Of a DNA stretch of 10,236 nucleotides, positions 4,132 to 10,236 are shown piece after piece (the first letter of the stretch is position 1; the number at the start of each line of letters is the position of its first letter). A model generated the notes under the pieces. It searched no databases and was not told where the DNA came from. It was given only the letters and a program-made list of their open reading frames with translations. This DNA comes from Escherichia coli. Its GTDB lineage: Bacteria; Pseudomonadota; Gammaproteobacteria; Enterobacterales; Enterobacteriaceae. Position numbers and translations under genes: made by a program. The stretch is taken from assembly GCF_003334355.1 (NCBI RefSeq), contig NZ_QOWP01000056.1, one strand, 5' to 3'.

Positions 4132-4207
4132 GCCGATATAGCTCAGTTGGTAGAGCAGCGCATTCGTAATGCGAAGGTCGTAGGTTCGACTCCTATTATC
4201 GGCACCA
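4132..4207 (+). tRNA. thrW: tRNA-Thr (anticodon CGU)
   Basis: 76-nt sequence GCCGATATAGCTCAGTTGGTAGAGCAGCGCATTCGTAATGCGAAGGTCGTAGGTTCGACTCCTATTATCGGCACCA with encoded CCA; anticodon loop carries CGT; matches E. coli thrW. Confidence 0.96.
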
Positions 4208-4372: not shown

Positions 4373-5587
4373 GTGAAACTCAATGCCCGTCAAATAGACA
4401 CAGCCAAGCCAAAAGAGAAGGCTTACAAGCTGGCCGATGGTGGCGGTTTGTATCTCTTGGTAAAACCTAATGGAGGTAAATACTGGCGACTTAAATATCG
4501 TGTAGCTGGTAAAGAGAAGCTATTGGCACTAGGTGTGTATCCTGAGGTTACTCTAGCCGATGCTCGGGCAAAACGTGAAGATGCGAAAAGAGGTATCGCT
4601 GGTGGTATCGATCCGATGGAAGCGAAACGAGAGGAAAAGATTGCCCGGGAAACGCAGTTAAACAACACCTTCAAAGATATTGCCCTTGAGTGGCACAGCA
4701 GCAAATTAAAAAAATGGTCTGCTGGTTATGCTTCAGACATCCTCGAAGCCTTCAACAAAGATGTGTTCCCTTACATTGGCAAAAAACCAATCGCCGAAAT
4801 CAAACCACTTGAACTTCTGAATGTGCTGCGGCGCATTGAGGGGCGCGGTGCTACAGAAAAAGCCAAAAAAGTGAGGCAGCGGTGCGGGGAAGTTTTCCGC
4901 TATGCAATAGTCACTGGTCGCGCAGAGTATAACCCTGCACCAGACCTTACTAGCGCGATGCAAGGCCATGAATCTAATCATTACCCTTTCCTTACAGCCA
5001 AAGAATTACCTGATTTTTTCAAGGCATTGTCCAGTTACTCAGGAAGCGCATTGGTTGTTATGGCGGCTCGTCTACTGATTATCACAGGCTTGCGGACTGG
5101 CGAACTACGTGGCGCATTATGGGATGAAATTGATTTCAACAAGGCTCTCTGGGAGATACCCGCTTCACGTATGAAAATGCGGCGGCCTCATATTGTGCCA
5201 TTGTCTGAGCAGGCTCTTTCGCTTATTGGGAAGATTAGAGAAATAACAGGCAATTACCCTCTTATGTTTCCCGGGCGCAATGATCCAAGGAAAACAATGA
5301 GTGAGGCCAGCATAAACCAAGTGTTTAAGCGCATTGGCTACGCTGGACGTGTAACTGGTCATGGGTTCCGGCACACTATGAGTACGATTTTGCATGAGCA
5401 GGGCTATAACACCGCGTGGATAGAAACGCAGCTCGCTCACGTTGATAAGAACTCAATTCGTGGCACATACAACCATGCGCAATATCTGGATGGAAGGCGG
5501 GAGATGCTTCAATGGTATGCCGACTATATGGATTCTCTCGAGCATGGCGGAAATGTGGTGCATATGGTGTTTGAAAAACACGCATGA
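4373..5587 (+). CDS. Site-specific tyrosine recombinase, P4-type integrase family
   Basis: 404-aa ORF with GTG start, GGAGG 4359-4363. N-terminus KLNARQIDTAKPKEKAYKLADGGGLYLLVKPNGGKYWRLKYR is typical of the P4-family integrase N-terminal arm-binding domain; C-terminal GHGFRHT...RGTYNHAQY carries the H-x-x-R and catalytic Tyr motifs. Sits immediately 3' of a tRNA. Confidence 0.92.
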   Translation: MKLNARQIDTAKPKEKAYKLADGGGLYLLVKPNGGKYWRLKYRVAGKEKLLALGVYPEVTLADARAKREDAKRGIAGGIDPMEAKREEKIARETQLNNTFKDIALEWHSSKLKKWSAGYASDILEAFNKDVFPYIGKKPIAEIKPLELLNVLRRIEGRGATEKAKKVRQRCGEVFRYAIVTGRAEYNPAPDLTSAMQGHESNHYPFLTAKELPDFFKALSSYSGSALVVMAARLLIITGLRTGELRGALWDEIDFNKALWEIPASRMKMRRPHIVPLSEQALSLIGKIREITGNYPLMFPGRNDPRKTMSEASINQVFKRIGYAGRVTGHGFRHTMSTILHEQGYNTAWIETQLAHVDKNSIRGTYNHAQYLDGRREMLQWYADYMDSLEHGGNVVHMVFEKHA

Positions 5588-5840
5588 AACAACTGGACAA
5601 GTATACAGAGGTTTACTAAAGTATAGGGGAGTAGATTGATAAAAACTCACAGAGGATTACTATTTAACAGTTAGCCCTGGAGAAGGGCAATCGCTCTTTT
5701 AACAACGAAGATGGAATCTTCTACGCAGCTGAAAAGCTGGATGCTCTTTAACAGCCTTTGGTGCTTTCCTGATGCAGGAAAGAATAGGGATACATGCACC
5801 TTTACAATGCATGTAATGATTCATCCATGAGGCTGCGGAT

Positions 5841-5863
5841 CGCTGACAAAGCGCAATTGCTCT
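5841..5863 (+). repeat. 23-bp direct repeat copy 1 (CGCTGACAAAGCGCAATTGCTCT) with palindromic GCAATTGC core; candidate operator
   Basis: Identical to 5954-5976. Part of a 26-bp imperfect dyad TGACAAAGCGCAA|TTGCTCTTTAACA. The right arm GCTCTTTAACA recurs at 5743-5753 and, with one extra T, at 5692-5704. Confidence 0.8.
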
Positions 5864-5953
5864 TTAACATTGATGTGGGCGGGATGGTTCGTCCCGCAGT
5901 GACCGATAGATTTCTATCGGGAAACATACAATGATTCAAATATGAATCTACGG

Positions 5954-5976
5954 CGCTGACAAAGCGCAATTGCTCT
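5954..5976 (+). repeat. 23-bp direct repeat copy 2 (CGCTGACAAAGCGCAATTGCTCT)
   Basis: Perfect copy 113 bp downstream of copy 1. Similarity extends upstream imperfectly (ATGAGGCTGCGGAT vs ATGAATCTACGG). Confidence 0.8.
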
Positions 5977-6238
5977 CTTGCCTGCCCACCATGCCCTGAA
6001 AAAGGGCGTTCTTTAAAACTACTGGATGTCACGCCTAATAGCGTGATCCTGCCGAAATGCAGGGTAGCTCTACCCTTGTGGAGCAAACAAACCAAAACAA
6101 TCTGACTATCTTTTATAAAAGACCGCAATATGTTTTTCATATTGTGGTCTTTGGCGTATTCGACATTTGATGCAAATAAAACTCTCGCCATTCGTTGCAG
6201 GAGGGAGTTATTGCGTCATTAGTACAGGATATTAATAA

Positions 6239-6442
6239 ATGGCTAATTACAATTCATTAATTCGTCTCTCTGAAGTTCAAAGGCGAACTGGTTATAGCAA
6301 AGCATGGATTTATCGTCTTATTAGTCAGGGGAGGTTCCCTAAACAGGTAAAAATTGGAAGTCGGGCAATTGCTTTTGTTGAGTCTGAAATAGATGAATGG
6401 ATTGAGAAGTGTATATTAGAATCTAGAGACGAGGTGGCCTGA
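6239..6442 (+). CDS. alpA: AlpA-family phage regulatory protein (Xis/Vis-like winged-helix DNA-binding protein)
   Basis: 67-aa ORF MANYNSLIRLSEVQRRTGYSKAWIYRLISQGRFPKQVKIGSRAIAFVESEIDEWIEK...; helix-turn-helix segment and E-I-D-E-W motif characteristic of AlpA/Vis family; typical position downstream of a P4-type integrase. Confidence 0.85.
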   Translation: MANYNSLIRLSEVQRRTGYSKAWIYRLISQGRFPKQVKIGSRAIAFVESEIDEWIEKCILESRDEVA

Positions 6443-6873
6443 TGGAAAAGAAAAACCGCCCATTACAGGCGGCTAATTCAGATATTCGCGTATCTGATGT
6501 TACGCCCCTGACAAAATCCCTTCAAGCACCAAAGCGCACACCGAAAAAGCATCGTGCCAGAGTCTATATGCTGCGTACTGGTATAGAGGGATGGACAGAA
6601 AATGACATTCTTCGCTACTGCCGTCTGTCTTCTGGTCGTAACTATGCAACAGAGTTAGAACGCCAGCTTGGAATCACTCTGGAGCGTATCGACGAAAAGA
6701 ATCCTGATGGTATCGGAACACACCTTCGCTACCGTTTCTCCTGCCGTGGTGATGTTCTGAAAGTGATCACTCATGTTAACCATCTTGCGAGCATAAATGA
6801 TCACAACGGACTTTCTCAGCAGGAAATTGCCGACATTCTGAAACTCTACCCGGACGCGTTTAACGCCGCCTAA
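6442..6873 (+). CDS. Hypothetical protein (143 aa), basic N-terminal tail; function unknown
   Basis: ATG overlaps the alpA stop (TGATG); GAGGTGG SD at 6431-6437. No family recognised. Confidence 0.7.
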   Translation: MEKKNRPLQAANSDIRVSDVTPLTKSLQAPKRTPKKHRARVYMLRTGIEGWTENDILRYCRLSSGRNYATELERQLGITLERIDEKNPDGIGTHLRYRFSCRGDVLKVITHVNHLASINDHNGLSQQEIADILKLYPDAFNAA

Positions 6874-6885
6874 CGGAGACTGAAA

Positions 6886-7719
6886 ATGAACATCGAAAAA
6901 AGCAGATTAATTTCTGAGGCCGCCCCTCATCTGAACGCCTCTCTGGGCACAATTAACGGTAATGAATTTGCCGCAATTGTCCCGGTTATTCCTGGTCATA
7001 TCGGTGGGCGTGAAACCAATATTGTTAGCGCAAAAGCGTTACACAAAGCGTTGGGCGTGGGAAAAGACTTCTCTACATGGATCACTGATCGCATCTCTGA
7101 ATATGACTTCACCATTGGGCACGATTACTCAGTCCATAAAACAATTTCCCCAAATTTGGGGAAAAGCCCGAATGGCGCGGCTTACAGCAAGATTAAGCAG
7201 TCTGGCAGACCCGGCAAAGACTATCTGTTAAGTGTCGGAATGGCGAAAGAACTGGCAATGATCGAACGCAATGATCAGGGTCGCGCTATCCGCCGTTATT
7301 TCATCCAGTGCGAGGAAGAATTACAGCGTAGCGTGCCTGAAATCGCCGCCCGCTATCGTCGCCAGCTAAAAGCCCGTATCAGTGCCGCAAACAACTTTAA
7401 GCCAATGTGCGATGCGCTGAATATGGCCCGTGCCGAGATGGGTAAAACGACGCAGCAACACCACTACACAAACGAGAGCAATATGATTTCTCGTATCGTT
7501 CTTGGTGGGCTAACTGCTAAGCAGTGGGCGCGGATAAATGGCTATTCTGGCGAACCTCGCGACCATATGAACGCAGAACAGCTTGAGCACCTCTCATATC
7601 TCGAAAGCACCAATATCACGTTAATTGATATGGGCATGGAATATGAGCAGCGCAAAGGAGAACTCACCCGCCTGTCGCAACGCTGGCTCGCCAAGCGTCT
7701 GGAGGTGGTCAATGTCTAA
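6886..7719 (+). CDS. Phage antirepressor-like protein (AntA/KilAC-type N-terminal domain), 277 aa
   Basis: GGAGA SD 6875-6879. Motifs ...AKALHKALGVGKDFSTWITDRISEYDF... and ...DYLLSVGMAKELAMIERNDQGRAIRRYFIQCEE... resemble the AntA-type antirepressor N-terminal domain as I recall it. Confidence 0.8.
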   Translation: MNIEKSRLISEAAPHLNASLGTINGNEFAAIVPVIPGHIGGRETNIVSAKALHKALGVGKDFSTWITDRISEYDFTIGHDYSVHKTISPNLGKSPNGAAYSKIKQSGRPGKDYLLSVGMAKELAMIERNDQGRAIRRYFIQCEEELQRSVPEIAARYRRQLKARISAANNFKPMCDALNMARAEMGKTTQQHHYTNESNMISRIVLGGLTAKQWARINGYSGEPRDHMNAEQLEHLSYLESTNITLIDMGMEYEQRKGELTRLSQRWLAKRLEVVNV

Positions 7720-7894
7720 GCCAACAGGAACACCACAACCACAAAAACGCTACAAAGATGCCCACGGAGCACTCGTTACTGTCGAAAGCGTGTCTCACAA
7801 CCGAGTGACGTTTTATCGCGACGGGTATCAATCGCCATGCGTACAACCGCTGGCGCGTTTCATGAAGGAGTTCGCGGAGGTTAACAAATGCTAA
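7712..7894 (+). CDS. Small phage-type protein (60 aa); tentatively DUF4222-like
   Basis: ATG 7712 with GGAGGTGG 6 nt upstream, overlapping the upstream stop (ATGTCTAA). Translation [60 protein letters not shown]. The track ORF starts further upstream (7625) inside the preceding gene; the internal start is better supported. Confidence 0.65.
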   Translation: MSKPTGTPQPQKRYKDAHGALVTVESVSHNRVTFYRDGYQSPCVQPLARFMKEFAEVNKC

Positions 7895-8955
7895 CCGTCC
7901 AGAAGAAGACATTTTCACTGGCTGGTATGTCGCCAAAATCCAGCAATATGACGGCAAAGTCAGGCATTAATACAGCAGATACAAGCAAAGTTTATCATTT
8001 GCTGGTGGTCGGAACGGATGCCTTAACCATATCAGAAATCTCGGGCGATGATATTAGCATTGAGAAGGTCAGCGGCTGCGCCAGAAAATTTCTGGTCGTA
8101 GATGATGTCTTCCGCTCGTGTAGTGACTCCACAAAAACATTCGTCCACGCGCGTGACGTTAACGAAATGAGCGCGATGTACTGTGCATCTGGTGCTTCCA
8201 ATAGCGAGTTTTCGGAGTCCATAAAAAAGAGCTTGCCGTTATGCGGCAACACGGTTTATGGTTATAAGGCACCTCATAAAACGGGTGCCGGGATTGGCGT
8301 CCTGGTAAATCGAATGGCGACATATGACGCGCCGAGCGTCTTTTTTTATGTCGTAGGTCTGACTCACCCATTTTTTGGGCGTTGGTGTATAATCCAGCGC
8401 CTTTGTCAATCAATGGTGGCTCAGGCAGGGGCTTCTTCGGAAGCGCCGGTATCCATTCGAGCCGGTTACGCCAACCCTGTCTGGGCTACCACCAGCGAAA
8501 TTGGCGTTTCCGGTGGTAGCGTTACATGCTATCGAATGGAGGCTGCCACATGCTGGCTACTACCCCTACCCAAAAACCGCAATTTATCTGGATTATCGCC
8601 GCAGTTCGCCGCGATTGCCCGACAATTACCGCCAAAATTCATCATATTGCTGCCGAGTCTGAACGCGATGCTCGCCGTTCTCTGGTGCGCGATCACGTCT
8701 GCTTTTTTGCTGGTCGTATCCGCATGGAGGTGGCACATGATTAAAACCTACGATGTGCATATGGATCCCCTCGAACGCACAAGCCAGATCATCACACTGA
8801 CAGAAGTGATTAACGACATTCTGGTGAGCAACTCTCCCTCACGAGACGAAAGACTGAAGGCGTTACTCGCGATATTGGATCTCGCCGTTCGTGACGTTCA
8901 TTTCCTGCTGGAAGGTGGCGAAATGCCAGGAAAAACGGGGGCAACCAATGAATAA
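7888..8955 (+). CDS. Unresolved 355-codon open frame: real N-terminal gene start at 7888; frame stays open through the structured RNA region, the Icd-like gene (other frame) and the 8737 small gene
   Basis: ATG 7888 with GGAGG 7 nt upstream and ATGCTAA overlap with the upstream stop supports initiation. No stop in this frame until 8953-8955. Residues ~176-215 ([35 protein letters not shown]) resemble what databases label ash family protein, but this stretch coincides with strong RNA hairpins. The true C-terminus is unknown. Confidence 0.3.
8326..8347 (+). terminator. Intrinsic-terminator-like element inside the 7888 frame
   Basis: GACGC (8326-8330) / GCGTC (8336-8340) 5-bp GC-rich stem, 5-nt loop, followed by seven T (8341-8347). 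A second T6 run is at 8371-8376. Confidence 0.35.
8388..8393 (+). promoter_or_regulatory. Consensus -10 hexamer TATAAT, TG immediately upstream; possible promoter for the structured RNA/icd leader
   Basis: GTGTATAAT at 8385-8393. No convincing -35 at 17 bp spacing, so weak. Confidence 0.25.
8428..8520 (+). ncRNA. Candidate c4/CI-type antisense regulatory RNA (three consecutive hairpins)
   Basis: HP1 8431-8444: GCTTC/GAAGC stem with TTCG tetraloop. HP2 8445-8466: 6-bp stem (2 wobble) with a 10-nt loop carrying TCCATTCGA (8452-8460). HP3 8485-8520: 9-bp stem CTACCACC.../...GGTGGTAG plus 6-bp inner stem, TTGG loop. The HP2 loop is exactly complementary to TCGAATGGA (8532-8540), which overlaps the GGAGG SD of the Icd-like gene, and 8/9 complementary to 8310-8317. 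Confidence 0.4.
8550..8744 (+). CDS. Host cell division inhibitor Icd-like protein (64 aa)
   Basis: ATG 8550 with GGAGG 8538-8542. Translation [64 protein letters not shown]; the F-x-W-x-x-x-A-V-R-R ... E-x-x-A-R-R ... F-A-x-R pattern matches my recollection of Icd-like proteins of P1/P4-type elements. The track start at 8526 lacks an SD. Confidence 0.6.
   Translation: MLATTPTQKPQFIWIIAAVRRDCPTITAKIHHIAAESERDARRSLVRDHVCFFAGRIRMEVAHD
8737..8955 (+). CDS. Small acidic hypothetical protein (72 aa), independently initiated
   Basis: ATG 8737 with GGAGGTGG at 8727-8734; overlaps the icd-like stop as ATGATTAA. Translation [72 protein letters not shown]. Same frame as the 7888 ORF. Confidence 0.55.
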   Translation: MIKTYDVHMDPLERTSQIITLTEVINDILVSNSPSRDERLKALLAILDLAVRDVHFLLEGGEMPGKTGATNE

Positions 8956-9142
8956 CTCAATTAATACCCCTCGCCTTACGTCCGCACTTCAATTAATCGA
9001 GCAAGCAGCGGCTGTCCTGGTTGCTGTCAGTCTTTCGGCTGAAGAAATGGACGCTGCTGATGTCGTGGATGCGATTAAAGCGTGCTCATCTTTGGTTAAC
9101 GATGCCCGTGCCGAGCTGGTAATTCTTGGGGGTGAAAAATGA
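8948..9142 (+). CDS. Small acidic hypothetical protein (64 aa)
   Basis: ATG 8948 overlapping the upstream stop (ATGAATAA); [64 protein letters not shown]. The track start at 8891 lies inside the upstream gene. Confidence 0.6.
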   Translation: MNNSINTPRLTSALQLIEQAAAVLVAVSLSAEEMDAADVVDAIKACSSLVNDARAELVILGGEK

Positions 9143-9402
9143 ATATCAACTTAATTTATCGTCATCCGTGTGAGCTGGAAATTGAATCATTGCTGGGGCG
9201 TGAAGAGCCATATCCAGACACATTCACTCCCGCAGATTGCGCGACTGAACGGCTTACCAGAGCGCGCACAGGTCTGGTTCATGTGATGAATGAGATTGTT
9301 CCCTCGGTGGGAGGGGAACAGGCGACAGTAATCAATAGCTGGCTACAAAAAGTTACCTCCCTGATAGATATCGGTTTAATCGATGTGGAGAGTGCGAAAT
9401 GA
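9139..9402 (+). CDS. Small acidic hypothetical protein (87 aa)
   Basis: ATGA overlap with upstream stop; GGGGGTG upstream; MNINLIYRHPCELEIESLLGREEPYPDTF... Confidence 0.65.
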   Translation: MNINLIYRHPCELEIESLLGREEPYPDTFTPADCATERLTRARTGLVHVMNEIVPSVGGEQATVINSWLQKVTSLIDIGLIDVESAK

Positions 9403-9620
9403 CCAACATCCAGCTCATTGAAGCGCAATGTCGCATCGAACAGGTTCAGACTGTTTTAGGGTTCTGGCTTGAAGGGGCCAGCCCCAGCAACAGAGACAAG
9501 TTAATGATTGGCGCGGTTATGTCACTGCTCAATGGCGTACCAGAAGCTATTCAGGAAGCGGACGAATTGTTGGGCAAATATGAGTTACAGAATCATTCAG
9601 GCGAGGCGAAACATGAATAA
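9399..9620 (+). CDS. Small acidic hypothetical protein (73 aa)
   Basis: ATGA overlap with upstream stop; GGAG at 9387-9390; MTNIQLIEAQCRIEQVQTVLGFWLEGASPSNRDKLMIGAVMSLLNGVPEAIQEADELLGKYELQNHSGEAKHE. Confidence 0.6.
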   Translation: MTNIQLIEAQCRIEQVQTVLGFWLEGASPSNRDKLMIGAVMSLLNGVPEAIQEADELLGKYELQNHSGEAKHE

Positions 9621-10161
9621 TTTCTTAACCTTCCATGCAGAAGCAACGCCTGACGGCGTAAACATCATGCACCGCAGCAACGATGGCATGACAGAACGCG
9701 TTGAGACCGTCTCATATATTGATGCCGTAAATCGTCTGGATGCCGGGGATTATGACGATAAACCAGATGAAGGCATGTTTATACATCTCGCTATTGCCAG
9801 TGGCGGCAACCAGGGATATTTCGATTACACATCACAGCATCACGTGATTATGTGGCGCTGGCTGATAGCAACAGCATTCATCAATGAAATGAGAAAGGAA
9901 AACGGCACCGTCAGCATTATTGATGACAGTGGCAATCATTCCGTGGTTTCTGTTTATTCCAATGGCATCGTCGCCATGCCGCTGTATCCAGTAGCAGAGC
10001 GCCTCGCTATGGCAAACAACATTGAGGGCGCAATGATCGAGAAATATGGTGTTGATGTCGGAACAAAGAATGCCATCATTTTTTACAGCAACATGTTCGA
10101 TGTCGAACAGGGAACACTCACTTCGTTTGGGCGAGAAGTGCTTGCCGATCTTCACAACTGA
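9613..10161 (+). CDS. Hypothetical protein (182 aa); stop codon supplied by the first 3 nt of the downstream IS, so possibly C-terminally truncated
   Basis: ATG 9613 overlapping upstream stop (ATGAATAA), GAGG at 9603-9606; MNNFLTFHAEATPDGVNIMHRSNDGMTERVETVSYIDAVNRLDAGDYDDKPDEGMF.... The track start at 9508 is inside the upstream gene. TGA 10159-10161 coincides with the IS terminal TGAACCGCC. Confidence 0.7.
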   Translation: MNNFLTFHAEATPDGVNIMHRSNDGMTERVETVSYIDAVNRLDAGDYDDKPDEGMFIHLAIASGGNQGYFDYTSQHHVIMWRWLIATAFINEMRKENGTVSIIDDSGNHSVVSVYSNGIVAMPLYPVAERLAMANNIEGAMIEKYGVDVGTKNAIIFYSNMFDVEQGTLTSFGREVLADLHN

Positions 10162-10236
10162 ACCGCCCCGGAAATCCTGGAGACTAAACTCCCTGAGAAA
10201 GAGGTAAACAGGATGACTAAAAATACTCGTTTTTCC
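10159..10236 (+). mobile_element. IS3-family insertion sequence (IS629/IS1203-like), left end; continues beyond window
   Basis: TGAACCGCCCCGGAAATCCTGGAGACTAAACTCCCTGAGAAAGAGGTAAACAGG then ATG...MTKNTRFS matches my recollection of the IS629-type left inverted repeat and OrfA N-terminus. From memory, not verified. Confidence 0.65.
10213..10236 (+). CDS. IS3-family transposase OrfA, N-terminal 8 codons (3'-partial at window edge)
   Basis: ATG 10213 preceded by GAGG; MTKNTRFS...; only 24 nt available. Confidence 0.5.

Follow-up and report, generated by a model that had tools for sequence, protein, structure and literature searches.

Does a tRNA-borne island of Escherichia coli carry a rearranged version of the phage P1 immunity region immI, or a switch of a different descent? 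The question is raised by a 10,236-nucleotide stretch of DNA (contig NZ_QOWP01000056.1 of assembly GCF_003334355.1), referred to here at its full length as the window, in which a gene for an AntA-like antirepressor (6886 to 7719), a candidate antisense RNA, and an Icd-like gene (8550 to 8744) occur together inside an island with a P4-type integrase. A sequence-only reading of the window took these for the ant, c4, and icd elements of immI in a new order and within one operon. Our analysis leads to a different answer. We put at roughly 80% the probability that the region is the regulatory "Bro zone" of a phage-inducible chromosomal island (PICI) of the EcCIMP1 family, inserted at thrW and having a P4-type RNA immunity switch at its core. 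The case for this reading is built on the elements themselves, their order, their complementarities and co-variation, their homologies, and the identity of the island.

No conventional gene occupies positions 7895 to 8549, between a gene for a DUF4222 protein and the Icd-like open reading frame (ORF). An internal sigma-70 promoter, the equivalent of P4 PLE, was recognized here by hexamer conservation (8233 to 8262, plus strand): its hexamers, TTGCCG (8233 to 8238) and TATGGT (8257 to 8262), are separated by an 18-nucleotide spacer and align with the TTGCCT-18-TATAGT of P4. The promoter is followed on the same strand by an isrK/seqA-type leader RNA (8269 to 8346), which matches Rfam RF01394 over its full length (67.1 bits against a gathering score of 50) and is an element beyond those named by the sequence-only reading. 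The 3' end of this leader is an intrinsic terminator (8326 to 8346) that the terminator scan identified as a hairpin plus a T-run. The suspected antisense RNA is also present. A full-length match to the C4 family (Rfam RF01695; 79.5 bits against a gathering score of 45; E = 1e-14) places a C4/CI-type antisense RNA at 8409 to 8496 on the plus strand, and this segment folds at -47.2 kcal/mol (z = -5.8), with none of 200 shuffled sequences folding as well. The fold is the family structure and has the tRNA-like stem and two exposed boxes of a P4-type immunity RNA, with box b' (8452 to 8460) lying in a hairpin loop and box a' (8468 to 8474) being single stranded.

Both exposed boxes have exact complements on either side of the C4 RNA, over 7 to 9 nucleotides in the complementarity scan. 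Box a' (ACGCCAA) is complementary to TTGGCGT in the leader (a1, 8294 to 8300) and again in a downstream target region at 8501 to 8541 (a2, 8501 to 8507), while box b' (TCCATTCGA) is complementary to TCGAATGG in the leader (b1, 8310 to 8317) and to TCGAATGGA downstream (b2, 8532 to 8540). The b2 box overlaps the Shine-Dalgarno sequence GGAGG (8537 to 8541) of the Icd-like gene, which stands eight bases before the ATG at 8550, and the arrangement as a whole is that of P4-type regions, in which one target lies upstream and the other covers a downstream ribosome site. The 8-mer b box occurs in the 10-kb window only as b1, b', and b2, with 0.49 occurrences expected.

To place these boxes among their relatives, we used an 18-mer common to the leaders of P4 and the window to retrieve 66 loci from IMG/VR (L006 to L071). 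The TTG of the -35 hexamer and the TAT(A/G)GT of the -10 hexamer are kept at fixed spacing in 65 of the 66, with the spacer sequence free to vary. In these loci, b' and a' occur in 15 combinations, and with few exceptions the loci have targets on both sides of the RNA that have changed correspondingly. Co-variation of this kind is the pattern that would be expected of a functional, specificity-determining RNA-RNA interaction, and the combinations look as if the b' and a' boxes recombined independently. Counted by type, there are eight b' loop cores (nine loop strings as extracted) and four a' boxes behind the 15 combinations.

The first translated gene past the immunity RNA, as in P4, encodes a Kil homologue. 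The 64-amino-acid product of the ORF at 8550 to 8744 (plus strand) scores 71.7 bits (cutoff, 25) with the NCBIfam model NF033153, "host cell division inhibitor Icd-like," and the same model recognizes P4 Kil (65 amino acids) at 76 bits and P1 Icd at 52.6 bits, which bears out the Icd-like assignment made from the sequence alone. Its sequence identity is 44% with P4 Kil and 25% with P1 Icd. Pfam has no model for proteins of this kind, and a tblastn search of a phage collection found nothing, the query being too short for a database of that size. We consider the ATG at 8550 a better start than the ATG at 8526 because it is the one preceded by GGAGG at 8537 to 8541 and because P4 Kil starts at the equivalent position. 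RefSeq is inconsistent on this gene: some genomes lack a call, and where there is one, the start is placed at either of two sites, for a product of 72 or 64 amino acids.

A long open frame also runs across the whole RNA region. This eta-like ("ash family") frame (7888 to 8955, plus strand; PHROG 6928, 3e-27) was found in the ORF list; it begins with an ATG that overlaps the DUF4222 stop codon and contains no stop for 355 codons, a span that takes in the promoter, both RNAs (isrK leader and C4), and, in another frame, the Icd-like gene. Over the RNA region it is 40% identical to P4 Eta, and its N-terminal motif is kept in divergent loci, so that by sequence it appears to be the counterpart of P4 eta. 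RefSeq (records H1 to H15) has no RNA annotation here and treats the region as an "ash family protein" pseudogene.

These elements suggest how the switch might operate, if work on P4, P1, and PICIs is taken as the guide to the processing of the RNA, the block of translation, early termination, translational read-through, and induction by a helper. The internal promoter would be constitutive and would give rise to the leader with its a1 and b1 boxes; transcription would then either end at the isrK-type terminator or continue through the C4 RNA, a2/b2, and the Icd/Kil-like gene. The C4 RNA would be excised from this immunity transcript, a step that involves RNase P in P4-type regions, and its exposed boxes a' and b' would pair with a1/b1 and a2/b2, with pairing at b2 masking the ribosome-binding site of the Icd/Kil-like gene. 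The untranslated transcript would terminate early, and the toxin and the downstream replication genes, including the primase, would thereby stay off in the quiescent island. A helper phage would turn on the alpA promoter, AlpA being a helper-induced activator in Gram-negative PICIs (PMC6092414), and would give a longer transcript that covers alpA, orf143, the AntA-like gene, the DUF4222 gene, and the eta-like frame. In P4, eta is translated only from an upstream late promoter, and its translation lets the transcript escape immunity-dependent termination (PMC10111431). Likewise, ribosomes on the eta-like frame would cross the RNA region and shield the alpA transcript from the immunity RNA. To this extent, sequence comparison supports what the sequence-only reading had suspected, namely, a satellite at thrW in which an RNA controls immunity and a cell-division toxin, and the C4 and Icd-like families are those it had guessed.

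Several observations weigh against this account. The eta-like frame is in phase with kil in P4 and in the sister loci L006 and L042, but in the window, L008, L009, and L031 the two are out of phase, and because of this the read-through step may differ in detail from that of P4. An intrinsic terminator stands between the leader and the C4 RNA, which means that production of C4 needs read-through. The sole structural relative found for a model of the AntA-like protein is DdrC, a DNA-binding repair protein. Finally, the short isrK RNA of Gifsy-1 has an activating role rather than that of a passive target (PMC4825925).

This last point underlies the alternative that survives best, although we still judge it unlikely. 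In a switch of the Gifsy-1 type, the short terminated leader would act in trans as an activator or a decoy, either binding the long transcript or titrating C4, and would thereby turn on translation of the Icd-like gene instead of being no more than a target site. The full-length isrK match with a terminator of its own fits such a role, as does the observation that the short IsrK of Salmonella activates translation of a downstream ORF and an antirepressor 140-fold (PMC4825925); in addition, the short RNA carries a1 and b1, both fully complementary to C4, and could sponge it. However, the homologous seqA of P4 is described as a target needed for termination (PMC10111431), and the gene that follows the Gifsy-1 RNAs is an antirepressor gene, not an Icd-like gene. 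A trans-acting leader would also be more a refinement of the P4-type switch than a reason to exclude it.

The preferred P4-type reading assigns the AntA-like gene to the alpA operon, upstream of the switch. This operon opens with a gene for an AlpA/Vis-like, excisionase-type regulator (6239 to 6442, plus strand; PHROG excisionase/regulator, 3e-11; phmmer match to P4 Vis, 2e-10), the accession of which is identical to that of the EcCIMP1 protein. It continues with orf143 (6442 to 6873, plus strand), a 143-amino-acid ORF that starts within the alpA stop codon, is found beside alpA in related loci by phmmer, and had no match in family searches, NCBIfam and PHROG among them. The AntA-like gene follows after a 12-nucleotide gap and overlaps by 11 nucleotides the start of the DUF4222 gene (7709 to 7894, plus strand; named by RefSeq; PHROG 285, 1e-11), whose stop codon in turn overlaps the ATG of the eta-like frame. 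The terminator scan found no plus-strand terminator-like sites between alpA and 8326, and it is plausible that transcription from the alpA promoter reads through over a long distance. The proposal of a single operon holds in the nested sense known from P4, but not in its simple form, since the immunity transcript has its own promoter downstream of antA.

The AntA-like protein itself (277 amino acids, encoded at 6886 to 7719 on the plus strand) carries the domain that its name implies: Pfam recognizes an AntA/AntB domain (PF08346) at residues 47 to 129 (E = 3.8e-21), PHROG matches it to "anti-repressor Ant" (1e-37), RefSeq names it an "antA/AntB antirepressor family protein," and the AntA domain is recognized by Pfam in all 39 aligned homologues. 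Thus, of the domains that the sequence-only reading had led us to look for, AntA and the Icd-like family were recovered, whereas no KilAC domain was found when Pfam was run on the 277-residue protein and the 39 homologues. A pairwise BLAST hint of a hidden KilAC domain (E = 0.003) was not confirmed by hhalign or by Pfam on those homologues. An AlphaFold model built from the 39-sequence alignment reached a predicted local distance difference test (pLDDT) score of 82 (a run with 15 close homologues, at pLDDT 50, was discarded). The protein is probably DNA binding; the match of its model to the DdrC fold neither supports nor excludes antirepressor activity. The C-terminal half gave only a weak PADLOC match, to the candidate PDC-S22, and the gene context of an Edwardsiella phage homologue of antA was uninformative.

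Since antA lies upstream of the internal promoter and of every C4 target box, the C4 RNA cannot act on it, and the b box occurs nowhere else in the window; the idea that the RNA controls the AntA-like gene is lost on these grounds. By analogy with the logic of eta translation in P4, the AntA-like gene would instead be carried on the helper-induced alpA transcript that reads through the immunity region, and its product would be an induced accessory protein of the alpA operon, outside RNA control. The 66 loci are consistent with a variable gene at this position. They show three layouts, with vis directly before the promoter (P4 type), with alpA, orf143, antA, and the DUF4222 gene (window type), or with alpA and orf143 but no antA (L006, L047, and L031).

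These results make a rearranged P1 immI, in which the C4 RNA would govern both antirepressor and Icd and ant would have moved upstream, highly improbable. It is true that the C4 RNA adjoins an Icd-family gene, as in P1, and that a co-directional "antirepressor family" gene stands 690 bp upstream of the C4 RNA. Yet that gene is upstream of the promoter and all a/b boxes, and it is no counterpart of P1 ant, because the two proteins have no domain in common: in Pfam, P1 Ant1 shows KilAC/ANT alone and the window protein shows AntA alone, and profile comparison with hhalign gave a probability below 1%. Moreover, the order in P4 is identical without any ant gene, and sister loci that lack antA retain the RNA module. 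The synteny comparison indicates no rearrangement at all. P4-type elements natively have a leader, C4 RNA, and Icd-like gene in this order, preceded by vis or alpA and followed by a primase.

The identity of the island was settled by comparison with EcCIMP1, a 19,963-bp PICI of E. coli MP1 that is inserted into tRNA-Thr, has proA and yagU as its neighbors, and uses the att core TCCTATTATC (PMC11773190). Its reported genes encode an integrase, AlpA, an antirepressor, an Ash family protein, a primase, DNA-transfer proteins, and PerC, and it is induced, excised, and transduced only with the P22-like phage Kapi1 (PMC11773190). The MP1 locus (L075) is 94 to 97% identical to the window at the nucleotide level, has the same att core, and has the same gene order, namely, int, alpA, orf143, antA, the DUF4222 gene, ash, the Icd-like gene, small ORFs, primase, ejection-protein genes, and PerC; at 19,963 bp it compares with ~18.3 kb for the window-type island of strain F344. 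The RNA module goes unmentioned in the EcCIMP1 paper, as judged from a term search that found no instance of "Icd" and no whole-word "pac" and that did not extend to C4, isrK, or seqA (PMC11773190). A 236-bp segment upstream of alpA (5761 to 5995) is present in the window but not in EcCIMP1; it contains two identical 23-bp direct repeats, CGCTGACAAAGCGCAATTGCTCT, at 5841 to 5863 and 5954 to 5976, which are part of a ~115-bp duplication.

What separates the two islands in the regulatory region is the immunity cassette. The window and EcCIMP1 are almost identical up to 8290 and again from ~8540, while between these points a1/b1, the C4 body, and a2/b2 all differ, so that EcCIMP1 has a ~250-bp cassette of another specificity. 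Its boxes are nonetheless complementary to each other, CTGCGAA with TTCGCAG and CCTTGTAC with GTACAAGG. Given that the cassette is swapped as a unit and internally matched, the window island and EcCIMP1 should be heteroimmune, as judged from their boxes. P1 and P7 are heteroimmune. The phage Kapi1 does not appear to be a target of the island RNA, in that it has sar but neither C4 nor isrK and no paired a/b boxes.

The behavior of EcCIMP1 also bears on whether the element is a cryptic or a satellite one, as the sequence-only reading had left it. Satellite stands; cryptic does not, since the near-identical EcCIMP1 was excised and transduced with its helper (PMC11773190). Accordingly, a decaying, inert island whose RNA and Icd arrangement has no current function, a view to which the RefSeq "ash family" pseudogene label and the out-of-frame eta-like frame lend some color, is very hard to credit when all ORFs are intact, the 4-kb segment is found at ≥80% coverage in 475 of 5,426 complete E. 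coli genomes, compensatory box changes are kept between variants, EcCIMP1 excises and transfers (PMC11773190), and the label itself is the product of annotating an RNA region as a protein.

The setting of the window agrees with a satellite of the PICI kind. The host part comprises phoE, proB, and proA, followed by the tRNA-Thr (CGU) gene thrW (4132 to 4207, plus strand; ARAGORN, Rfam tRNA), which is the integration site, and then the island. The att core TCCTATTATC lies at 4191 to 4200, inside the tRNA gene, and a second copy is found 18,304 bp downstream in strain F344, giving the island size of ~18.3 kb in that strain. The P4-type tyrosine integrase presumed by the sequence-only reading is encoded at 4373 to 5587 on the plus strand (NCBIfam NF007246, E = 1e-89; RefSeq, tyrosine-type recombinase/integrase), and all of the island genes listed in the window are on that strand. 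Beyond the Icd-like gene, a 72-amino-acid ORF (8737 to 8955, plus strand) starts in an overlap with the Icd-like stop codon (ATGATTAA); it was recognized from the sequence and has phmmer matches in sister loci, while family searches gave no match. Four small co-directional ORFs from the ORF list (8948 to 9142, 9139 to 9402, 9399 to 9620, and 9616 to 10161, plus strand; PHROG 20558 and PHROG 1515) then lead toward a primase just beyond the window. The genes past the window were taken from a complete genome that is 100% identical to it over 6200 to 10158, and they comprise a TOPRIM/DUF927 primase (PHROG primase match, 3.5e-178), two podovirus ejection-protein genes, and a PerC-type regulator. 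The inward-facing integrase, alpA, the primase, a size in the ~10- to 20-kb range, and the specific att site are the features of a Gram-negative PICI.

The island is common. The segment from 6200 to 10236 is present at ≥80% coverage in the 475 genomes mentioned above (~9% of complete E. coli genomes), and the window's own immunity cassette was found in 294 genomes. All of the top genome matches listed end at 10158, so that the last 78 bases of the window (10159 to 10236) differ from those relatives. In the late zone (L001, 19548 to 23002; L075, 5481 to 9517), homologues of podovirus ejection ("DNA transfer") proteins accompany a DUF2824 gene; the ejection-protein genes are P22-like, and one late-zone stretch is 81% identical to Kapi1.

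The eta-like frame also contains a trace of P22-type phages. On its antisense strand, nucleotide similarity revealed a 107-bp fragment of a P22-type small-terminase gene (8036 to 8142, minus strand; gene 3, nucleotides 274 to 380), 91% identical to terS of IME10 and 86% identical to P22 gene 3. The similarity begins exactly at the start of the annotated 22-bp P22 pac site and vanishes on both sides, and the fragment is present in 11 of 11 window-type islands examined. The island 22-mer is identical to P22 pac at 15 of 22 positions, and by hand count the window sequence fits the published pseudo-pac pattern (PMC11226127) at 15 of its 17 positions and the EcCIMP1 sequence fits it at 16. Beside pac, a polymorphic patch differs among islands: the window has the allele of IME10, L025 has that of P22, and EcCIMP1 has a third one, as if the fragment had been renewed time and again by exchange with helpers. 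We tentatively raise the possibility, which is itself rather doubtful, that this island family steals packaging from P22-type phages by means of an antisense pac-site mimic within the eta-like gene. The fragment has no nucleotide similarity to terS of Kapi1, the proven helper, and therefore, if it is a packaging signal, it would serve other helpers.

EcCIMP1 has no identifiable terminase or capsid genes, and its packaging mechanism was left open (PMC11773190). For such an island, the fragment points to a possible packaging signal. If the mimic were real, it would explain how EcCIMP1-type islands are packaged without terminase or capsid genes and by which helpers, and a single small cassette for hijacking would combine the immunity region with a packaging signal and an induced AntA-like protein that binds DNA. 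The more immediate consequence of our analysis is that it corrects an annotation habit, in which an RNA immunity region is called an "ash family" pseudogene and its RNAs go unannotated in RefSeq. The P4-type switch also offers a concrete candidate for the silencing and mutual exclusion of islands that are common in E. coli, and with naturally occurring variants that are predicted to be heteroimmune and whose only difference is a 250-bp cassette, immunity specificity is easy to test.

Comparison with known systems places the module more exactly. In the isrK-orf45-anrP locus of Gifsy-1 (PMC4825925) and the lambdoid "immunity region" of SfV, isrK is followed by C4 on one strand, as in the window, but the RNAs are followed by an antirepressor or Rha-type gene, whereas in the window they precede the Icd/Kil-like gene and replication genes. 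The immI regions of P1 and P7 resemble the window in having a C4 family RNA with a1/b1 upstream and a2/b2 downstream and an Icd-family ORF whose ribosome site lies under b2, so that the pairing of a c4 RNA with an icd gene under a/b box control is found in the window as well. The P1 annotation likewise places a1/b1 upstream of c4 and a2/b2 downstream, with b2 at the icd ribosome site; of these, our complementarity scan of P1 returned a1, b1, and b2 but not a2, whereas it found all four equivalents in P4 and the window, and the boxes take up matching positions in the RNAs of all three. The window departs from P1 and P7 downstream of icd, where it has the 72-amino-acid ORF and small ORFs instead of a coupled KilAC-type ant gene; its Icd is only 25% identical, and no C1 operator was identified.

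P4 is the closer relative. On its minus strand, P4 has vis (ORF88), an isrK match (8692 to 8615), a C4 match (8507 to 8420) that is the CI immunity RNA, and kil, in that order, and it shares with the window the same Rfam families in the same order and spacing, with vis/alpA upstream and a primase downstream. A long eta-type frame covers the RNAs in both, the Kil homologues are 44% identical, and the boxes occupy the same positions within the RNA (nucleotides 44 to 52 and 60 to 66) but differ in sequence; because of these differing a and b boxes, the window island and P4 would be heteroimmune. The window further differs in that three extra genes (orf143, the antA-like gene, and the DUF4222 gene) stand between alpA and the promoter and in that its eta-like frame is not in frame with kil. 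Of the P4 core genes, neither those for capsid size and late control (sid, psu, and delta) nor the one for the helper derepressor (epsilon) is annotated in the 18.3-kb island, whose late zone has the P22-like ejection-protein genes in their place. For Gram-negative PICIs, C4 and isrK model matches in the Bro zone and the P4 eta/kil logic have been described in general terms, and the scheme has the same order of integration, Bro, replication, and late zones, variable Bro-network genes past alpA, and C4 and isrK within an eta-like gene (PMC10111431). The window locus is one instance of this Bro zone, with AntA as the variable gene and no essential difference from the scheme, and its module is a further heteroimmune member of the P4-style RNA immunity regions within an already published island family.

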